64,000 nucleotides of DNA from assembly GCA_017464805.1 (NCBI GenBank), contig JAFTYE010000014.1, positions 8,476 through 72,475 on the forward strand, in the 5' to 3' direction. The translations under genes were made by a program, and so were the position numbers. The notes beneath the pieces are model-generated. The model worked only from the letters and a program-made list of their open reading frames with translations, had not been told where the DNA came from and made no database searches. Below, piece after piece: positions 889-14,242 of this stretch (positions are counted from its first letter, which is position 1; every line of letters starts with the position of its first letter). The stretch is from Clostridia bacterium. Its GTDB lineage: Bacteria; Bacillota; Clostridia; Oscillospirales; CAG-272.

Positions 889-2349
889 TTAGATATTCAC
901 AATATTACTTGCCACAGTATCTCGAAAAACATTGTCATGTTCTACCAGGAGCATGGTCGGGGCAAACTCCGTTATGAGCTGTTCAATCTGCATACGTGAG
1001 TACACATCAATAAAGTTGAGCGGTTCATCCCATACATATAAGTGTGCCTTTTCACAAAGGCTTTTCGCAATTAGGACTTTCTTCTTTTGCCCGCCAGAAA
1101 AGTCTTTAATATCCTTTTCAAACTGTACACGCTCAAAGTCCATTTTCCTAAGAATTGCCTTGAACAGACTTTCATCAAGGTTGTTTTCTTCTGCAAACTC
1201 GGAAAGGGTTCCACATAAATACGATGTATCCTGTGGCACATAAGAAATTACAAGCCCAGAGCCAAGTGTTACTGTACCCGTATAATCTATGGACTGCCCG
1301 ACTACCAACTTTAACAGGCTACTTTTGCCACTGCCGTTCTTCCCGTCAAGCACAATGCGTTCTCCCCGTCTTATTTCAAACGAAACGGGTTCACAAACTG
1401 AAATGCCATCATAACAAACTACTACATTCGATAATGATGCAATCAAATCTGTATGGTAATTAAGCGGTTGTATCTTGAGGGCTTCTGCGGATTCCACATT
1501 TTTCAGCAATGCTGATTTTTGTTCGATTGTCTGTTGTTGTCTCGCTTCTATAGATTTTGAACGCTTCATCATTTTGGCGGCTTTATGACCGACATAACCT
1601 TTATCTGCTGCCCCAATTTTGGAAGCTTCTACACGTTCAGACCATACTGCAGAGCGTTTTGCCGACTGCTGTAATCGTCCGATGTTCTTTTGCAAACGTT
1701 CGTTCTGAGCCAGTTCAAATTCTTGCTGTCGCTCAAAATTTGACATCCATGATGAAAAGTTTCCGCTTTGCACTTCGATATTCGCTCGGTTAATCGATAG
1801 AATATGGTCAACACAATCGTCAAGAAAGCGACGATCGTGAGAAACTAAGATGAATCCCTTTTTCTTTTTCAGATATGTCGCCACACTTTTTCTCGCTTTG
1901 GCATCCAAATGGTTGGTAGGTTCATCAATCAGTAGGAAATGCCCTTCATTAAGAAAAAGAGCGGCAAGCAAAACCTTTGTCTGCTCTCCGTTGGAAAGTG
2001 TTTCAAAAGGTCGCCAAAGCACATCGACATCAACATCAAGATAAGAAAGTTCTCGCATAAGTTCCCATTCTTCCGCAAGCGGGCAAACCTCCTGCAATAT
2101 ATCCTCTGTAATACGATTCTTATCTGAAACGGGATAAGGAAAATAATCAAACTGTACGGATGATAGGATTTTTCCGCTATACTCATATTTCCCAAGCAGA
2201 AGATTCAGAAAGGTTGTTTTACCTCGTCCGTTTCTGCCCACAAAACCAAGCTTCCAATCGGTATCAACCTGGAAACTGACATTTTCAAAAACATTATCAT
2301 AACTTGTCGGATATGAAAATGTAAGGTTTTCAATTTTAATCATTGACAT
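889..2349 (-). CDS. ABC-F ribosomal protection protein, Lsa-type antibiotic resistance (ARE) family
   Basis: Two ABC cassettes and no TM segments. Walker A: GRNGRGKTT and GKNGSGKSS. Signatures: LSNGEQ and FSGGQKKK. Walker B: LLIDEPTNHLD and YVWDEPLNFID. There is a charged interdomain linker. The layout and blocks (EEWELMRELSYLDVD..LWRPF, YLKKKKGFILVSHDR) match Lsa(A) as I remember it. Confidence 0.85.
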   Translation of the reverse strand: MSMIKIENLTFSYPTSYDNVFENVSFQVDTDWKLGFVGRNGRGKTTFLNLLLGKYEYSGKILSSVQFDYFPYPVSDKNRITEDILQEVCPLAEEWELMRELSYLDVDVDVLWRPFETLSNGEQTKVLLAALFLNEGHFLLIDEPTNHLDAKARKSVATYLKKKKGFILVSHDRRFLDDCVDHILSINRANIEVQSGNFSSWMSNFERQQEFELAQNERLQKNIGRLQQSAKRSAVWSERVEASKIGAADKGYVGHKAAKMMKRSKSIEARQQQTIEQKSALLKNVESAEALKIQPLNYHTDLIASLSNVVVCYDGISVCEPVSFEIRRGERIVLDGKNGSGKSSLLKLVVGQSIDYTGTVTLGSGLVISYVPQDTSYLCGTLSEFAEENNLDESLFKAILRKMDFERVQFEKDIKDFSGGQKKKVLIAKSLCEKAHLYVWDEPLNFIDVYSRMQIEQLITEFAPTMLLVEHDNVFRDTVASNIVNI

Positions 2350-2382
2350 AAATATTATCCTCCTTTGCGTGTCATACGATAC

Positions 2383-2436
2383 AAAGTCGGTTCGGTGAAT
2401 GTTTACTCCGCATAGATTTCACCAAAAGGAACCGAC
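2383..2436 (-). promoter_or_regulatory. Second attenuator hairpin in the ABC-F leader; it overlaps the 3' end of the 26-codon uORF
   Basis: On the transcribed strand GTCGGTTC..GGTGAA pairs with TTCACC..GAACCGAC and is followed by TTTGTAT. It sits about 35 nt upstream of the AAGGAGG RBS of the ABC-F gene. Confidence 0.45.
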
Positions 2437-2483
2437 ACTATACGGAGTAAATCATGTGTAACTATCTGTTCTGCACTATTCAT
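2403..2483 (-). CDS. 26-codon upstream ORF in the ABC-F leader (MNSAEQIVTHDLLRIVSVPFGEIYAE)
   Basis: GGAGGTG RBS 6 nt upstream of the ATG. The stop lies inside the second hairpin. It may be regulatory rather than a stable protein. Confidence 0.3.
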   Translation of the reverse strand: MNSAEQIVTHDLLRIVSVPFGEIYAE

Positions 2484-2494
2484 AAAGCACCTCC

Positions 2495-2536
2495 AAAACA
2501 AAATAAGAGCCGCAAGAAAGTTTATCCTTGCAGCTC
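2495..2536 (-). terminator. First attenuator terminator in the ABC-F leader
   Basis: On the transcribed strand GAGCTGCAAGG pairs with CTTGCGGCTC and is followed by TTATTTTGTTTT. Confidence 0.55.
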
Positions 2537-2660
2537 GTCATAGCATAATAACACCACTAAGCAAAAGTGGCAACAGCACTATATTGAGTAAGATAGACAT
2601 ATAACTTTCTTGCAATAGACACAATAATGCCAAAGTATAGCACTACCGCATATTTTGATT

Positions 2661-2684
2661 TTATTTGCAAGAAAAGTTAATCAT
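2661..2684 (-). CDS. 7-codon leader peptide MINFSCK (ribosome-stalling type uORF expected for ARE ABC-F genes)
   Basis: AGAGGTGG RBS, then ATG ATT AAC TTT TCT TGC AAA TAA. It lies about 30 nt downstream of the predicted promoter. Confidence 0.4.
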   Translation of the reverse strand: MINFSCK

Positions 2685-2712
2685 CTTTCCACCTCTTTCT
2701 AAATTTTAAAAC

Positions 2713-2741
2713 ATTATACCATAAATTGCAGGCAAATACAA
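2713..2741 (-). promoter_or_regulatory. Sigma-70 type promoter of the ABC-F leader
   Basis: TTGTAT, 17-nt spacer, TGgTATAAT (extended -10) on the minus strand. Confidence 0.6.
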
Positions 2742-2893
2742 GTGGTTACAAAAATTTTAACAAATCGCTTATAATACAATCATATAACTTTACTCATTCC
2801 TTACTGACCGTAAAATTCAAAGTTTCTGTTGTAATCTCAATTCGTTTTTTAAGCATATCACAAAAATGTAAAAATTTCTACCGCCTACGCAAA

Positions 2894-2924
2894 GAAACGC
2901 CCGAACATTGCTGTTCGAGCGTTC
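2894..2924 (-). terminator. Terminator downstream of the small-ORF/tnpV pair
   Basis: 12-bp stem with one mismatch (AACGCCCGAACA/TGTTCGAGCGTT). It is followed by a T-rich stretch on the minus strand. Confidence 0.5.
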
Positions 2925-2944
2925 TCGCTTTCGATTGCAATGCT

Positions 2945-3091
2945 TTATCTTTGTAATTTTATCATAACCTTGTCAACTGCATCCGTATATCTGCCCTGTG
3001 CAATCAACTTATTGCGGAAGGCAAGCAGGGCATTGAAGATGTACCTCCGTTCCTCTTCTGTGAGATAAAGGTAATATTTCCGCTTTCTCAT
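2945..3091 (-). CDS. 48-aa hypothetical protein co-translated with TnpV (MRKRKYYLYLTEEERRYIFNALLAFRNKLIAQGRYTDAVDKVMIKLQR)
   Basis: Hand-translated because it is below the ORF-track size cut-off. Its ATG overlaps the tnpV stop in an ATGA junction. Confidence 0.5.
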   Translation of the reverse strand: MRKRKYYLYLTEEERRYIFNALLAFRNKLIAQGRYTDAVDKVMIKLQR

Positions 3092-3468
3092 ACGAAGATC
3101 ACCTCGGCATTGACAGTTTCCGTAACCGCTTCACGAAGAGCGTTCATCCTGCCGACCCACTCCATTTGATTGTCGGCTTTCAGCTTTTCGGTAATGCCCT
3201 CACGCTCTGCCCATTGCTTCATAAGGCGGTCAAACAGTTTCTGTGCCTGTTCTTCAACATCGGCAAGGTGGCTTTGCAGTTTCCCGCTTGTCAGCAGATT
3301 TGTGTAGAACACCTTTTTATGTTGACGGATATACCGCAAATGCCGCTGACCCCATACGCCGATATGCCTTTCTTCTTTTTCGGCGGGTAATTCCAAACAG
3401 GGAATGTAATAATCGCCCTGCAATTCATACCAAAGACCGATTTGTTCGTTATAAATGTACTTTTCCAT
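3088..3468 (-). CDS. tnpV: TnpV-family transposon protein
   Basis: MEKYIYNEQIGLWYELQGDYYIPCL..GVWGQRHLRYI..LLTSGKL matches the TnpV family from Clostridial transposons as I recall it. I chose the internal ATG at 3468, which has a GGAGGA RBS 8 nt upstream, over the 3501 start. Confidence 0.75.
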   Translation of the reverse strand: MEKYIYNEQIGLWYELQGDYYIPCLELPAEKEERHIGVWGQRHLRYIRQHKKVFYTNLLTSGKLQSHLADVEEQAQKLFDRLMKQWAEREGITEKLKADNQMEWVGRMNALREAVTETVNAEVIFV

Positions 3469-3746
3469 TATGTAATCCTCCAAAATAATATATTCGCACA
3501 TACATCACAGTTTCCCGATTGCCACACTCTGTTATATCTTGTTATCAGTTTTTCTTGCCCTTGCTTTTGCCCTTATAATTGCTCGGAGCAAGGGTAAAGT
3601 CGTGTGAAATCGTATAAAGGAATAAGGTGAGCAGATTGCGAAAAACCCTTTATTTTCAAGGCTTTTAGAGGAATTCATTAACGCCCTACAACAAGCGATA
3701 ATGATTTAAGAAAAGTTAGTTTTCAAATTCTTATTTATCATTTTGC

Positions 3747-4070
3747 CTATTGCTTCGCCGCCCACTGTGCAAGCTGAATAAGGATGGGGGCAAGCTCCTT
3801 TGCCTTATCGGTGGCTTCGTATTCCACACGGATCGGAACTTCCAAATATTCAGAACGGCGAACAAGTCCGTCGCGCTCAAGCTCCTGCAAGGATCTCGCA
3901 AGCATTGTATTGGAAATACCCTTGACCTTCCGCAAAAGCTCGTTATAGCGAACAGTTCCATCTACGCTGAGGGAGCATAGGATCGCAAGCTTCCACTTCC
4001 CTCCGATCATCTCCATCGCGCGCTGCAGCGGGCACGCCTCGGTACAAGGACAGTTATGGCTATGAGACAT
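3747..4070 (-). CDS. HxlR-family transcriptional regulator
   Basis: GGKWKLAIL..YNEL..ISNTMLARSLQELERDGLV winged-helix core. The start was moved to the ATG at 4070, which has a GGAGGAA RBS 7 nt upstream. Confidence 0.85.
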   Translation of the reverse strand: MSHSHNCPCTEACPLQRAMEMIGGKWKLAILCSLSVDGTVRYNELLRKVKGISNTMLARSLQELERDGLVRRSEYLEVPIRVEYEATDKAKELAPILIQLAQWAAKQ

Positions 4071-11090: not shown

Positions 11091-11235
11091 CGTAATCTCT
11101 AGAGTTGAACAATGTTATATTTGAAGATTTCAAATAATAAAATTGTTTTTCGAGGAGTGTTTTCTTTGCTTACAGCGACTCAATTTTTGATATGTAAAAT
11201 CACCGCCAAACTGTTTGACGGTGACTTTGGAATAT

Positions 11236-11898
11236 TTATTTGAAGGACGGCGCATGGGTTTCATTGTTAGCGAAAGTATTGGGTCCGGGATTTGAGAGCG
11301 AGAAATACATTTTCGCCGCTTTAGTCGTACCGAAGTCACGGTTCGAGCCCGTTTCCTGTACCTTGTTGAAGGCATCACGGAACATCTGATTGTGTGCTTC
11401 CTCACGGTTGAGGAGGAAATCAATGGTTTCTCTGACCTTCTTATCCTCAATCTGACGGTAGAGATATTCATATACGACCTTTGCTCGTTGCTCCGATGCG
11501 ATGTTAGAGAGCAAGTCAGCACACAGGTCGCCCGTCACGGTAACATAATCGCCCGTCCAAGAATATCCCGAAGAATTGATGAGTCCGGGATTGAGACCAA
11601 GCAGAACATGAGTTTGTACCTCTCCTGCCTGCACCTTGGTTGCGTCCACGTCGTGTCCATTGAGCAGATTGATGGTCTGCGCTACCATCTCCATATGACC
11701 AAGCTCCTCGGCTGCAATATCAAGGAATAAGTCTTTGATCTCGGGATCCTTGATTCTGAAGCTTTGTGACATATATTGCATAGCCGCCTTCAATTCGCCA
11801 TTACCGCCGCCAAGTTGTTCCTGAAGCAAAACGGCATACTGCGAATTCGGTCTTTCGACCTCTACGGGATGAAATAACTGTTTTTCGTGTTTGAACAT
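11236..11898 (-). CDS. Manganese catalase family protein
   Basis: GELKAAMQY, AAEELGHMEMV and REEAH blocks of the ferritin-like Mn-catalase/CotJC family. Confidence 0.85.
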   Translation of the reverse strand: MFKHEKQLFHPVEVERPNSQYAVLLQEQLGGGNGELKAAMQYMSQSFRIKDPEIKDLFLDIAAEELGHMEMVAQTINLLNGHDVDATKVQAGEVQTHVLLGLNPGLINSSGYSWTGDYVTVTGDLCADLLSNIASEQRAKVVYEYLYRQIEDKKVRETIDFLLNREEAHNQMFRDAFNKVQETGSNRDFGTTKAAKMYFSLSNPGPNTFANNETHAPSFK

Positions 11899-11955: not shown

Positions 11956-11984
11956 TTGACGAATGCAGAAAATTATGGTACAAT
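11956..11984 (+). promoter_or_regulatory. Strong promoter driving the tRNA-like RNA gene
   Basis: TTGACG, 17-nt spacer, TGgTACAAT (extended -10). The predicted TSS is about 20 nt before the RNA 5' end. Confidence 0.7.
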
Positions 11985-12009
11985 AGCTTTCGTTAATAAG
12001 ATTTTTCGC

Positions 12010-12236
12010 AGGAGTGACGGCATAGGTTTCCACGGCGATGATTTGTGGGAGGTTGTGGCTTGACCACGGTTTTGACCATCTACAGCTTTGGACTACGTGG
12101 AAACAGTGTTTGTAAGAGCACCCGAAAATCGTTTTTGGACGGGGAGCCCCGAAAAGCCTTGTAAATCAAGGGAAAAATCAGTGCAGATTTGTTTGGGAGC
12201 AAGATGCTACAGGTTCGAGTCCTGTCACTTCGACCA
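12010..12236 (+). ncRNA. tRNA-like / tmRNA-like RNA (atypical ssrA candidate, about 227 nt)
   Basis: A 7-bp acceptor helix pairs 12010-12016 with 12226-12232 and has G:U at position 3:70. The T arm is canonical: ACAGG-TTCGAGT-CCTGT. Discriminator A and an encoded CCA follow. The 5' block ACGGCATAGGTTTCCACGG resembles the tmRNA GGNUUCGACGG region. It has its own promoter and terminator. No canonical ...ALAA tag ORF was found, and it is shorter than the Firmicute tmRNAs I remember. Confidence 0.55.
12216..12236 (+). repeat. Direct repeat copy 1 (3' end of the tRNA-like RNA)
   Basis: CGAGTCCTGTCACTTCGACCA, identical to 12359-12379. Confidence 0.9.
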
Positions 12237-12282
12237 AAATTTCCAAGGGATGGCTTTTGCTATCCCTTGGAAATTTTCTTTT
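12237..12282 (+). terminator. Intrinsic terminator immediately after the encoded CCA
   Basis: Perfect 15-bp stem AAATTTCCAAGGGAT/ATCCCTTGGAAATTT with a 10-nt loop, then TCTTTT. Confidence 0.8.
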
Positions 12283-12358
12283 AGATGCGAAAGGACTCGA
12301 AAGACGGGTCCTGAAAATGACACAGTCATTTTCCCATCGTGGCTTTTCCACAGAAAAG

Positions 12359-12379
12359 CGAGTCCTGTCACTTCGACCA
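12359..12379 (+). repeat. Direct repeat copy 2 (orphan 3'-end fragment, att-like)
   Basis: Identical 21-mer, but the 5' half of the T arm is missing upstream of it. Confidence 0.9.
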
Positions 12380-12384
12380 TCGAA

Positions 12385-12414
12385 AGAGGGACGGCCATCG
12401 GCCGTCCTCTTTTT
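12385..12414 (+). terminator. Second intrinsic terminator, after the orphan repeat copy
   Basis: AGAGGGACGGCC-ATC-GGCCGTCCTCT followed by TTTT. Confidence 0.75.
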
Positions 12415-12492
12415 AATATTTCCACTCTATATCACGAACATCCTCATAAGGGATTTTTCTTTCTGCGTCTGCCTAGAACAAATCATCAACCT

Positions 12493-12827
12493 CTACGACA
12501 CCCAAGATTTTTTGTCCTCGGAAAGCGTAAAGCTAATCCAATTTGCTCCCGTCCCCAACACACCAGACGCCTTTCCCTTCTTAGTCCTCAAATCAAACGA
12601 GGATACGACAGAAAGAGGCAACCCGGAACCGGTACTGTAAGAATAATATAACATATTGTCCCTGTATGCCATCTGAGTGACACTCCTACCTCCCGCCATG
12701 GTGTACACTTCGTATCCGCAGACAACCACAACGGAAAGAGGACATACTCTTCATCAACGGGCGTACATGCTACAACACAGCAAAGCGCAAACAAAACGAC
12801 AAACACGGCAGAAACGATCTTTTTCAT
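12493..12827 (-). pseudogene. Small lipoprotein gene split across two frames (frameshift or sequencing error)
   Basis: One frame carries the lipoprotein signal MKKIVSAVFVVLFALCCVVAC (ORF 12588..12827). The protein-like remainder (YEVYTMAGGRSVTQMAYRDNMLYYSYSTGSG...) is in another frame (ORF 12493..12729). The switch is near 12725-12745. Confidence 0.5.
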
Positions 12828-12967
12828 ACAGTTCTCCTTTCATACATACGCGTGTTATGTAACATCGTGTGGTCAGATTCGAATTTATTAGACCATATAT
12901 GCCATTTTTTGAAAAGAATTGTTATAAAAGACAATTTTGTGCAAAACAGGTGCCCATCAGTTTCCAC

Positions 12968-12996
12968 TTGCCAATTCCCTATCATTATGGTATAAT
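12968..12996 (+). promoter_or_regulatory. Promoter of the GH63-like gene
   Basis: TTGCCA, 17-nt spacer, TATAAT. Confidence 0.6.
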
Positions 12997-13024
12997 ATAA
13001 CAAATCCCGAAGGAGGTGGCTTAC

Positions 13025-14242
13025 ATGAGCAGCATAGAACATTACGGCGAATTGATTCGCCAATATACCAAAAACAACTACAAGGCGTGTCTGCGTGAGG
13101 GGGCGGGTGCTCTTGCCCATCCCTTTATCGTTCCAGGAAGCGTATACGCCAACCAGCTGTGGGACTGGGACAGCTGGCTGACGGACCTTGCCTTGCACGA
13201 GATTGCGGGAGACGAGGACATATCGGCGTATGAGAAGGGGTGTGTTCTGAACTTTTTGGATCACATCAACGAAGATGGCAAGATTCCGATCGTGATCGAG
13301 GAAACGTACGGGGCACTTCAGAAGGACTTTTCCCTTTCCAAGAACTCCCACAAGCCCTGCCTTGCCCAGCACGCGCTTTTCGTGTGCGAGCAGAATGGCG
13401 ATTTTGGGTGGCTTCGTCCGCGATTTGAGGAGCTTGTGCAGTTTGTGGAATGGTACGAGCGCACCAGCCTGCATGAATCCGGGCTTTATTTCTGGCAGGA
13501 CGATTTTGCCATTGGCGTAGACAACGATCCCGGCACCTTTTACCGCCCCGAAAGGAGCTCTGCCTCGATTTATCTCAACTGTTTGATGTATCGGGAGCTG
13601 AAAGCCATGGCAAAGCTTTGCACTGCTTTCGGTGACACGGCGAAAAGTTCGCTTTATACCGACCGTGCAGCAAGGCTGGGGGACGCGATCCGCGATCTGT
13701 GTTGGGACGAACGCGACGGCTTTTTCTACAACGTGGACGTGAATCTTTTACCGATCGATCCGTCCATCCACCTGCATTCAGGATGTCCGCGCCATTGGAG
13801 CACGCTGATCCAACGCATTGACGTGTGGACGGGCTTTATGCCGCTTTGGGCCGGCATTGCCACACCCGAGCAGGCGAAGCGCATGCTTGACCGTTATCTG
13901 GACGAGAGGACCTTCCACTCGTCTTTTGGCATCCGTTCCCTGTCGCGCCTTGAAAAGATGTACTGCATCAAAAAGTCGGGCAACCCGTCCTGCTGGCTGG
14001 GACCAATCTGGGGTGTGGTGAACTACATGGTCTTTGAGGGGCTTTGCCGTTACGACTACACGGAAGAGGCGCGCCGACTGGCAGAAAAGACCGTGACCCT
14101 GTACGGACGGGACATCGAGGCGTGCGGCGAGATGCACGAATACTACGATCCTGATACAGGCATCGGTGTCAACAACCAAGGCTTCCAAAGCTGGAACATG
14201 CTTTCCTACAACATGTACCGGTGGCTTGCGATACAAAAATAA
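13025..14242 (+). CDS. GH63-like / trehalase-like (alpha/alpha)6 glycoside hydrolase (MGH1-like)
   Basis: LWDWDSW, FGIRSLS, NPSCWLGPIWGVVNYM and EYYDPDTG blocks. The ATG at 13025 follows GAAGGAGGTG. Confidence 0.75.
   Translation: MSSIEHYGELIRQYTKNNYKACLREGAGALAHPFIVPGSVYANQLWDWDSWLTDLALHEIAGDEDISAYEKGCVLNFLDHINEDGKIPIVIEETYGALQKDFSLSKNSHKPCLAQHALFVCEQNGDFGWLRPRFEELVQFVEWYERTSLHESGLYFWQDDFAIGVDNDPGTFYRPERSSASIYLNCLMYRELKAMAKLCTAFGDTAKSSLYTDRAARLGDAIRDLCWDERDGFFYNVDVNLLPIDPSIHLHSGCPRHWSTLIQRIDVWTGFMPLWAGIATPEQAKRMLDRYLDERTFHSSFGIRSLSRLEKMYCIKKSGNPSCWLGPIWGVVNYMVFEGLCRYDYTEEARRLAEKTVTLYGRDIEACGEMHEYYDPDTGIGVNNQGFQSWNMLSYNMYRWLAIQK

Follow-up and report, generated by a model that had tools for sequence, protein, structure and literature searches.

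Genomic context and anatomy of the locus

The unit described here lies in a non-coding gap of ~1.1 kb between a Mn-catalase gene and a GH63-like gene, within a 64-kb stretch of DNA that was analysed as a whole and is referred to as the window. Its features and their coordinates are collected in Table 1. The segments of the unit are named a (the extended −10 promoter together with a variable 5′ module), U (a motif with the consensus TTGACCACnnnTTTGACCAyyTAC), c (the rest of the conserved block), O (consensus TTYGGGA) and T3 (the 3′ half of tRNA-Pro); the module in a varies between loci and belongs to type A in the window. Behind O, the remainder of T3 comprises, in this order, the 3′ strand of the anticodon stem (GCAAG), the variable loop (ATGCT), the T arm, the acceptor strand CACTTCG, A73 and CCA.

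Table 1. Features of the locus and its flanking genes, in window coordinates
Feature	Position	Strand	Basis
Mn-catalase gene, left flank of the non-coding gap	11236–11898	minus	
Sigma-70 promoter with extended −10, TTGACG-17-TGgTACAAT	11956–11984	+	promoter scan, 10/12 matches plus TG
Remaining 5′ module of a, type A (leader, heptamer and GTTTCCACG)	11985–12059	+	upstream alignment
Acceptor-like heptamer AGGAGTG, in the 5′ module of a	12010–12016	+	
GTTTCCACG, in the 5′ module of a	12026–12034	+	
Motif U, TTGACCACggTTTTGACCATCTAC, direct repeat of TTGACCA	12060–12083	+	near-invariant in 91 aligned loci
Segment c, GGACTACGTGGAAACAGTG then phased A-tracts, up to the junction	12084–12191	+	conserved arm
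O, TTTGGGA, anticodon loop of tRNA-Pro(UGG), 7-bp common core	12192–12198	+	
Rest of the tRNA-Pro 3′ half	12199–12236	+	BLAST matches to annotated tRNA-Pro genes
T arm, ACAGG-TTCGAGT-CCTGT	12209–12225	+	
Acceptor 3′ strand, CACTTCG	12226–12232	+	
A73 and CCA	12233–12236	+	
Terminator 1, 19-bp stem plus T run, opens the 143-bp insertion	12236–12285	+	terminator scan
Spacer of the 143-bp insertion	12286–12358	+	blastn against all loci
CGAGTCCTGTCACTTCGACCA, copy 2, T loop to CCA, direct repeat of 12216–12236	12359–12379	+	
Terminator 2	12388–12414	+	terminator scan
GH63-like gene, right flank of the non-coding gap	13016–14242	plus	

The stretch from the heptamer in the 5′ module to the CCA (12010 to 12236) measures 227 nt. 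The original prediction described a promoter-to-terminator unit with a tRNA-like 3′ end, and this description holds: the promoter scan recovers the extended −10 promoter, the T arm, A73 and the encoded CCA are in place, and the 3′ end is tRNA-derived, as judged by BLAST matches to tRNA-Pro. Two structures to which it drew attention are likewise present, namely a hairpin CCTTG-TAAAT-CAAGG (12157–12171) and a perfect 9-bp helix between 12026–12034 and 12096–12104 that sequesters the 5′ block.

The locus encodes neither a tmRNA nor a complete tRNA

The further proposal that the unit is a gene for a tmRNA-like or Ala-accepting RNA fails when ARAGORN and the Rfam tmRNA and tRNA models are applied. 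In the window, ARAGORN calls neither a tmRNA nor a tRNA at 11956–12414, its sole call being a tRNA-Arg elsewhere, and Rfam yields no match to this interval at the gathering score. Relaxing the threshold to E ≤ 10 brings up an 8.1-bit partial beta_tmRNA match on the T arm (the gathering score is 84) and, on terminator 1, miRNA-type hairpin matches at chance level. Rather, the 45-nt 3′ end is half of a tRNA-Pro with the loop UUUGGGA; positions 12192–12237 match the 3′ halves of annotated tRNA-Pro genes in a blastn comparison with phage records, and G72 followed by A73 at the 3′ end is the tRNA-Pro pattern. The half covers tRNA positions 32–76 only and is not a complete cloverleaf, as the D arm and the 5′ strand of the anticodon stem are missing.

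The proposed acceptor helix is present as far as its pairing goes (AGGAGTG and CACTTCG pair at six of seven positions, with A:G at 1:72 and G:U at 3:70), but its 6/7 score is at the level of chance: among shuffled 5′ modules 41% reach exactly 6/7 and a further 8% reach 7/7. The AlaRS identity set that had been recognized in this helix, G3:U70 plus A73 as in tmRNA, is not conserved across the relatives of the locus. The G:U pair at 3:70 arises only with the CACTTCG 3′ strand; relatives with CACTCCG have CGGAGTC or CGGGGTG opposite it and form G3-C70, and position 1:72, which is A:G in the window, is C-G in module types B and C, the tRNA-Pro pattern. What does exceed chance is the BLAST match of the 3′ end to tRNA-Pro, the 21-nt repeat and the conservation of the upstream block.

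An ssrA gene that has decayed or been reduced would account for the superficial likeness of GGTTTCCACGG and UUUUUGGAC to tmRNA blocks and for G:U at 3:70 plus A73, a point in its favour in the window copy alone. Taken by itself, the likeness of GGTTTCCACGG to the tmRNA 5′ block does not exceed chance; this sequence sits in the variable 5′ module and is missing from most relatives, and the internal blocks described as tmRNA-like fall either into the same module or into a block that behaves as a DNA element. No tag reading frame with a resume codon and a stop in a helix-5 loop exists at the locus, as had been remarked from the start; the region of the UAA hairpin is occupied by unrelated sequence in other core subtypes, and no smpB gene was found near the locus. 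The locus does share with tmRNA genes the T arm, the ACCA end, a promoter and terminator of its own and the use as an integration target. It differs from them in having no match to the models, no tag ORF, no pseudoknots and no conserved G3:U70, and in keeping a Pro anticodon loop, the 3′ strand of the anticodon stem and a variable loop, which tmRNAs do not have. The ssrA reading of the locus is thus refuted for practical purposes and retains next to no probability. A group I intron in a tRNA gene was also considered and rejected: there is no Rfam match, the 5′ ‘exon’ has neither a D arm nor the anticodon-stem strand, and the junction falls at the start of the loop.

A conserved family of loci in gut Clostridia

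The ~135-nt block upstream of the tRNA half is highly conserved in gut Clostridia, with at least 118 species genomes carrying it, as seen in a family scan of species-representative genomes with a core pattern (at least 118 loci). All carriers of the core pattern that were listed are gut Clostridia MAGs, assigned to Eubacteriales, Oscillospiraceae, Christensenellaceae and Ca. Scatosoma; the first relatives with the same layout were MT835887 from a phage collection (L007) and an IMG/VR fragment (L008). The order U-c-O-T3 with a complete tRNA-Pro 3′ half is found in 101 of the 121 loci examined, and in these the core pattern lies 119–121 nt from O (120 in nearly all), compared with 117 nt in the window. 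The T stems of the relatives comprise 15 sequence combinations, all of them fully complementary, and the 3′ end of T3 in the window is identical to that of intact tRNA-Pro genes in L131, L136 and L177.

The loci are mosaics in which the type of 5′ module, the subtype of the core and the type of T3 vary independently of one another, with the exchange point on the 3′ side exactly at O. The 5′ modules fall into at least six discrete types, and the upstream alignment places an equivalent extended −10 element at the same position in at least six of them. Some loci have no 5′ module, and some carry a different segment, X, where the tRNA half would be. Many carrier species have about one copy per genome. 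No conserved protein partner emerged from the first ORFs on either side (downstream in 78 loci, upstream in 42), which are diverse and mostly host-like. At least 40 loci share the beginning of a DUF6809 gene upstream of a. A recurring TTTCTTTGCTTACAGCGATGCAAATTTTGAG-like motif and inserts of ~95 nt in T loops were also noted among the loci.

Two familiar kinds of carrier were rejected. The core pattern is nearly absent from viral sequences as a prophage attP arm, two patterns giving 0 and 1 matches among the 2.9 million viral contigs of IMG/VR, and the ‘phage’ record MT835887 carries host-like genes; a single occurrence in IMG/VR therefore indicates an element that is not phage-like in look. 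A plasmid origin was dismissed after blastn returned no match in PLSDB.

Split tRNA-Pro genes in relatives and their rebuilding in silico

In one relative (L042), a tRNA-Pro 5′ half with its own promoter is followed by TTTGGGA, X (~110 nt), U, a spacer and an intact tRNA-Pro with its terminator; the locus continues with a Mn-catalase gene on the minus strand and then with a, U, c, TTTGGGA and T3. A second (L133) has the same layout, with a truncated tyrosine recombinase gene replacing the catalase. In both, the promoter-bearing 5′ half is situated ~1.45–1.5 kb upstream, and the outer 5′ half can pair with T3 in both the acceptor stem and the anticodon stem. In silico excision between the two copies of O removes 1444 bp from L042 and 1516 bp from L133 and leaves a gene that ARAGORN calls as tRNA-Pro. 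Removal of the insert thus restores the gene in both loci, as expected of att junctions, while the window copy has no 5′ partner with which this could be done. The inserted DNA in L042 and L133 holds a second, intact tRNA-Pro.

Uninterrupted, attP-like arrangements of the form a-U-c-O-X-U-spacer-tRNA-Pro exist in L123 and in the Ca. Scatosoma loci. A metagenome scan with U brought up 53 loci, ~36 of which consist of a promoter, a 5′ half, O, X, U, a spacer and an intact tRNA-Pro, and several of the loci are arrays of two or three 5′-half units. An element-borne intact tRNA-Pro after X-U is therefore present in L042, L133, L123 and ~36 metagenome loci, and the family combines a core of only 7 bp with an intact tRNA of the same isotype, located ~30 nt after X-U.

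Full-length homologues of the truncated L133 recombinase come as a pair of tandem genes (~480 and 395 aa; Phage_integrase and a SAM-like domain). These directly follow the intact tRNA in attL-type loci and directly follow T3 in L026, L053 and L122; L026 also carries a MobL relaxase and has DUF6809 on the other side of a. A recombinase is directly adjacent in few loci (2/78 downstream and 2/42 upstream). The att layout, the recombinases and the replacement tRNA in these relatives argue that the family is an integrative, probably mobilizable element.

The conserved block as a probable DNA arm

The conserved block looks like the DNA arm of an att site and not like a structured RNA, because it folds no better than shuffled sequences and because its A-tracts are phased at ~10.5 bp. 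The fold z-score of the core alone is −0.7 in the window and has a mean of −1.1 in 30 relatives, and RNAalifold finds compensatory pairs among 91 sequences in the T arm only, at a consensus energy of −10.7 kcal/mol; the core displays neither the covariation nor the excess folding energy that would characterize a structured non-coding RNA. The Fourier power of the A-tracts peaks at 10–10.5 bp, with a value of 2.2 versus 0.42 in shuffles (~5-fold), and the phasing, which resides in the 3′ part of the block, holds across subtypes of differing sequence. Repeated motifs, phased A-tracts and a fixed spacing, the hallmarks of an att arm, are all present, protein binding being putative. Motif U occurs on both arms, ~108–110 nt beyond the loop on the X side (~154 nt in one group), and also ~30 nt upstream of intact tRNA-Pro genes. 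It may serve as a protein-binding site, either of the integrase arm type or promoter-like, and U and the A-tracts together are putative integrase-binding and bending sites.

The same data bear on the possibility that the unit is a stand-alone non-coding RNA, in which the heptamer closes a tRNA-like minihelix that is processed by RNase P into a Pro-type tRNA mimic, with a possible role as a decoy, in regulating ProRS or the excision of the element, or as a tmRNA-like molecule. The strong extended −10 promoter, the terminator right behind the CCA and the occurrence of about one copy per genome in many species all suit such an RNA. The whole transcript also folds with z = −3.96, but this value derives mostly from terminator 1 and not from the core, and there is no covariation beyond the T arm. 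The heptamer is found where the 5′ end of a tRNA would be, at +22 to +25 from the −10 element, in three module types (A, B and C), and it is 7/7 complementary in type C, whose CGGGGTG is a real tRNA-Pro 5′ end. The pairing of the heptamer is at chance level overall, and the heptamer is probably what is left of the 5′ end of a tRNA. The 9-bp helix of type A is mostly maintained. Against an RNA gene stand the missing 5′ strand of the anticodon stem, the random swapping of 3′ halves relative to the core, the loci that have no 5′ module or have X in place of the tRNA half, and the A-tract phasing and fixed spacing, which are features of DNA; moreover, in L042 and L133 the 3′ half demonstrably comes from a split tRNA gene, from which it was displaced. 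On balance we consider a stand-alone RNA unlikely.

Two of the observations that count against an att site concern the 5′ module. A strong promoter at a conserved position with the heptamer at +22 to +25 would equally suit an RNA gene, and the helix between the type-A module and the core is mostly kept, by visual inspection partly through G:U-compatible transitions.

Probable site-specific recombination in the anticodon loop of tRNA-Pro

The stretch 11956–12414 is probably an attR-type hybrid junction produced by site-specific recombination in the anticodon loop of tRNA-Pro(UGG), and not a tmRNA, a reading that we hold with fair confidence from sequence comparison. A crossover within the 7-bp loop O would have joined an arm of the element to the 3′ half of tRNA-Pro. 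The DNA to the left of O would then be the conserved arm of the integrative element family, made up of U and ~110 nt of A-tract-phased DNA and preceded by a strong promoter that reads outward. In the fuller relatives the att region is located between DUF6809 and the recombinases, with two tandem tyrosine recombinases beside it, and the element brings along a replacement tRNA-Pro, intact and next to its other arm (X-U-spacer-tRNA). In one variant the core shared with the target is no longer than the 7-bp anticodon loop, so that the tRNA gene is split without being restored. The anatomy of the family, the outcome of the split-and-rebuild test and the linkage to recombinases are direct observations on the relatives.

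The promoter would normally serve the element's own tRNA or read across attP, and the chimeric transcript of ~245–295 nt expected from the window may be a by-product that ends at the old tRNA terminator. That the promoter-driven chimera has instead been selected as a tRNA-like RNA of the element, e.g. as a mimic recognised by ProRS or RNase P, seems improbable to us. Such an RNA might respond to proline-tRNA status, govern excision or work in trans in a tmRNA-like manner; a function for the chimeric RNA is not supported.

An alternative origin for the same arrangement can be imagined in which the conserved block is the long, native and non-mobile leader of an operon for tRNA-Pro (L123 has such an order, a-U-c-O-X-U-spacer-tRNA), and a deletion between two TTYGGGA copies removed X, U, the spacer and the 5′ half, leaving a dead tRNA gene. 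The contiguous arrangement does exist in L123 and Ca. Scatosoma, and the loci that have the recombinase genes of the element itself right behind the 3′ half (L026, L053 and L122) are what an internal deletion predicts. However, the same event mediated by 7 bp would have to have happened many times, and it is most simply pictured as the work of one and the same recombinase, with the tRNA carried by the element as its substrate, which makes it a sub-case of the att model. The halves in L042 and L133 stem from a different, promoter-bearing tRNA gene, and a near-identical core across orders points to horizontal spread. We therefore regard a native leader as having a low probability, well below that of recombination at an att site in a target tRNA gene.

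Relation to known integration systems

The nearest parallel to the recombination model is tRNA-dependent lysogeny in actinobacteriophages (Fionnbharth, Cluster L, Gaia; Guerrero-Bustamante & Hatfull 2024), in which an element with a tyrosine recombinase and a short core carries a replacement tRNA, while sister elements with a core of ~43–45 bp rebuild the tRNA (PMC10865867). In both systems a tyrosine recombinase targets a tRNA gene that is not rebuilt at the junction, and both have long-core and short-core variants, an arm of the L026 type joining a full 3′ half beside the recombinases. The differences lie in the hosts (gut Clostridia) and the target (tRNA-Pro), in the small integrative or mobilizable look of the elements, which carry a MobL relaxase and two tandem recombinases and are not phages, and in the position of the replacement tRNA immediately beside the att arm, together with the pile-ups of 5′ halves. 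The Clostridial family is known here from sequence alone, and the window copy represents an orphan junction.

Classical att junctions of islands and prophages in tRNA and tmRNA genes have sublocations in the anticodon loop and the T loop, as summarized in the Islander concept (PMC4383910). As in these, one end of the inserted DNA is recognizable by a displaced 3′ fragment of a tRNA, the main crossover is placed at the anticodon loop, the identity block of the 21-nt repeat runs from the T loop to the CCA, and repeated motifs and putatively bent DNA flank the att region. A classical island supplies a 3′ copy that makes the gene whole again, whereas the short-core variant of the Clostridial family does not; the window, in addition, has only the fragment-bearing junction, and its T-loop repeat encloses just 143 bp. 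The object is therefore an att junction in a tRNA gene, of a known kind, while the Clostridial family of short-core, tRNA-replacing elements is apparently undescribed.

This removes a candidate for a new tmRNA-like or Ala-accepting RNA, and it illustrates that chimeras containing half a tRNA can mislead readers and should be recognised as att junctions. Integrative elements of this family are very widespread in uncultured gut Clostridia (at least 118 species genomes) and split tRNA-Pro at the anticodon loop, leaving behind promoter-bearing pile-ups of 5′ halves and orphan 3′ halves. They extend the logic of tRNA-dependent lysogeny to another phylum and to elements that are not phage-like, and they explain many breaks in the assemblies of gut MAGs as well as odd ‘half-tRNA’ loci there.

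The copy in the window and its 143-bp insertion

Within the 64 kb of the window there is no tRNA-Pro, no 5′ half of tRNA-Pro, no second U motif and no recombinase. The copy is read as an orphan attR-type relic, since it has the order a-U-c-O-T3 with neither a partner nor a recombinase, and which side belongs to the ‘element’ is inferred, the 64 kb containing no partner junction and no recombinase. In the 12 kb to the left, which carry TnpV and an ABC-F gene, the GC content is 0.40–0.49, compared with 0.51–0.57; the low GC content and TnpV are compatible with imported DNA. Five metagenome contigs of the same species are identical across the locus. In a sixth (L006) the identical catalase is joined to different DNA, and the break is at the start of the catalase instead of at O, an observation that counts against the att reading.

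The 21-nt repeat (12216–12236 and 12359–12379) and the twin terminators (called by the scan at 12236–12277 and 12388–12408) of the original prediction are present, and its view of the duplicated 3′ end as a signature of site-specific insertion is borne out by the family. A like duplication is found in 21 other loci, where 16–35 nt from the T loop to the CCA are repeated 123–351 bp downstream and each copy of the duplicated 3′ end is then followed by a terminator. Three copies are present in one of these loci (L067), and the spacers can be grouped into a few small families. For the 122-nt spacer of the window no homologue exists among the sampled loci, its blastn matches being limited to contigs of the same species.

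Relatives with the T3 of the window (L029, L035, L048, L089 and L106) have a single copy, and in L101, which has the same 3′ half, the first terminator behind that half is similar to terminator 2. For these two reasons, 12237–12379 is considered a 143-bp insertion with an identity block of the T-loop type, and terminator 2 is probably the native terminator of the former tRNA-Pro gene. The insertion would stem from a second recombination event, separate from the first, or be what remains of such an event. Just after the stem of terminator 1, GATGCGAAAGGACTCGAA (~12286–12303) repeats part of the T loop and the acceptor strand in inverted orientation.

Possible serial integration and associated recombinases

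In eight metagenome loci (L142, L177, L149, L164, L152, L156, L132 and L137), tRNA-Pro sequences are organised as arrays of two to four tandem units. Each unit consists, in order, of a tRNA-Pro 5′ half, the 7-bp TTYGGGA core (the tRNA-Pro anticodon loop), segment X, the TTGACCA-repeat motif U and a spacer, and a single intact tRNA-Pro closes each array. This pattern would be expected if integration had occurred serially, each element entering the replacement tRNA of its predecessor. The att region is accompanied by two tandem tyrosine-recombinase genes rather than one in L026 (2307-4917), L053, L122, L151 and L157, and by three in L142; in L026, the tandem recombinases are joined by a MobL relaxase.

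A TTTCTTTGCTTACAGCGATGCAAATTTTGAG-like motif occurs in the window at ~11158-11195 and ~12455-12490, and also in the related loci L008, L042, L087, L101 and L133. On one side it lies upstream of the extended -10 promoter of module a (or of the catalase terminator), and on the other downstream of the terminators of tRNA-Pro or of its 3′ half (T3); the motif therefore brackets the whole unit.

Genomic surroundings of the window locus

The Mn catalase and nadABC block of L006, a contig of the same species, is identical to that of the window, while an MgtE-like gene takes the place of the RNA/GH63 side (L006 1-983 versus window 11899 onward). The break coincides exactly with the catalase start codon, which means that strains also differ by a rearrangement of the catalase block.

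Features flanking the locus in the window
Feature	Position	Strand	Remarks
ABC-F-type ATPase	889-2349	minus	within the lowest-GC stretch (0.40)
TnpV	3088-3501	minus	within the lowest-GC stretch (0.40)
Non-coding DNA, ~600 nt	12415-13015		after terminator 2
Near-consensus promoter, TTGCCA-17-TATAAT with TG	12968-12996		precedes the GH63-like gene

L174 likewise carries TnpV, downstream of its replacement tRNA-Pro, along with a DUF4368 fragment and a frameshifted MobA/VirD2 relaxase. Together with the genes at 889-3501 of the window, these hint at Tn4451-like mobilizable transposons in both regions.

T-loop inserts and individual loci

The T loop of tRNA-Pro remnants is interrupted by a structured insert of ~95 nt (CATACCCCGCC...GACAAGCTCGCTTGTC...GGCGTGGGTAT...), positioned as GGTTCG|insert|CCTGTCAC..., in L124 and in the second units of L057, L067, L088 and L091. 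Its recurrence in several species raises the possibility of a small mobile insert with T loops as its target.

The record of L007 (GenBank MT835887.1) is titled 'UNVERIFIED: Bacteriophage sp.'. The portion read encodes an ABC permease, a radical-SAM enzyme, an HTH protein and DUF6809, with no phage structural genes in that portion; L007 probably derives from a bacterium or an integrative element rather than from a phage. In L112 (~3616-3830, minus strand), an intact tRNA-Pro(UGG) has its own promoter upstream and an unusually long leader of ~170 nt, which bears no relation to the conserved U-c core.
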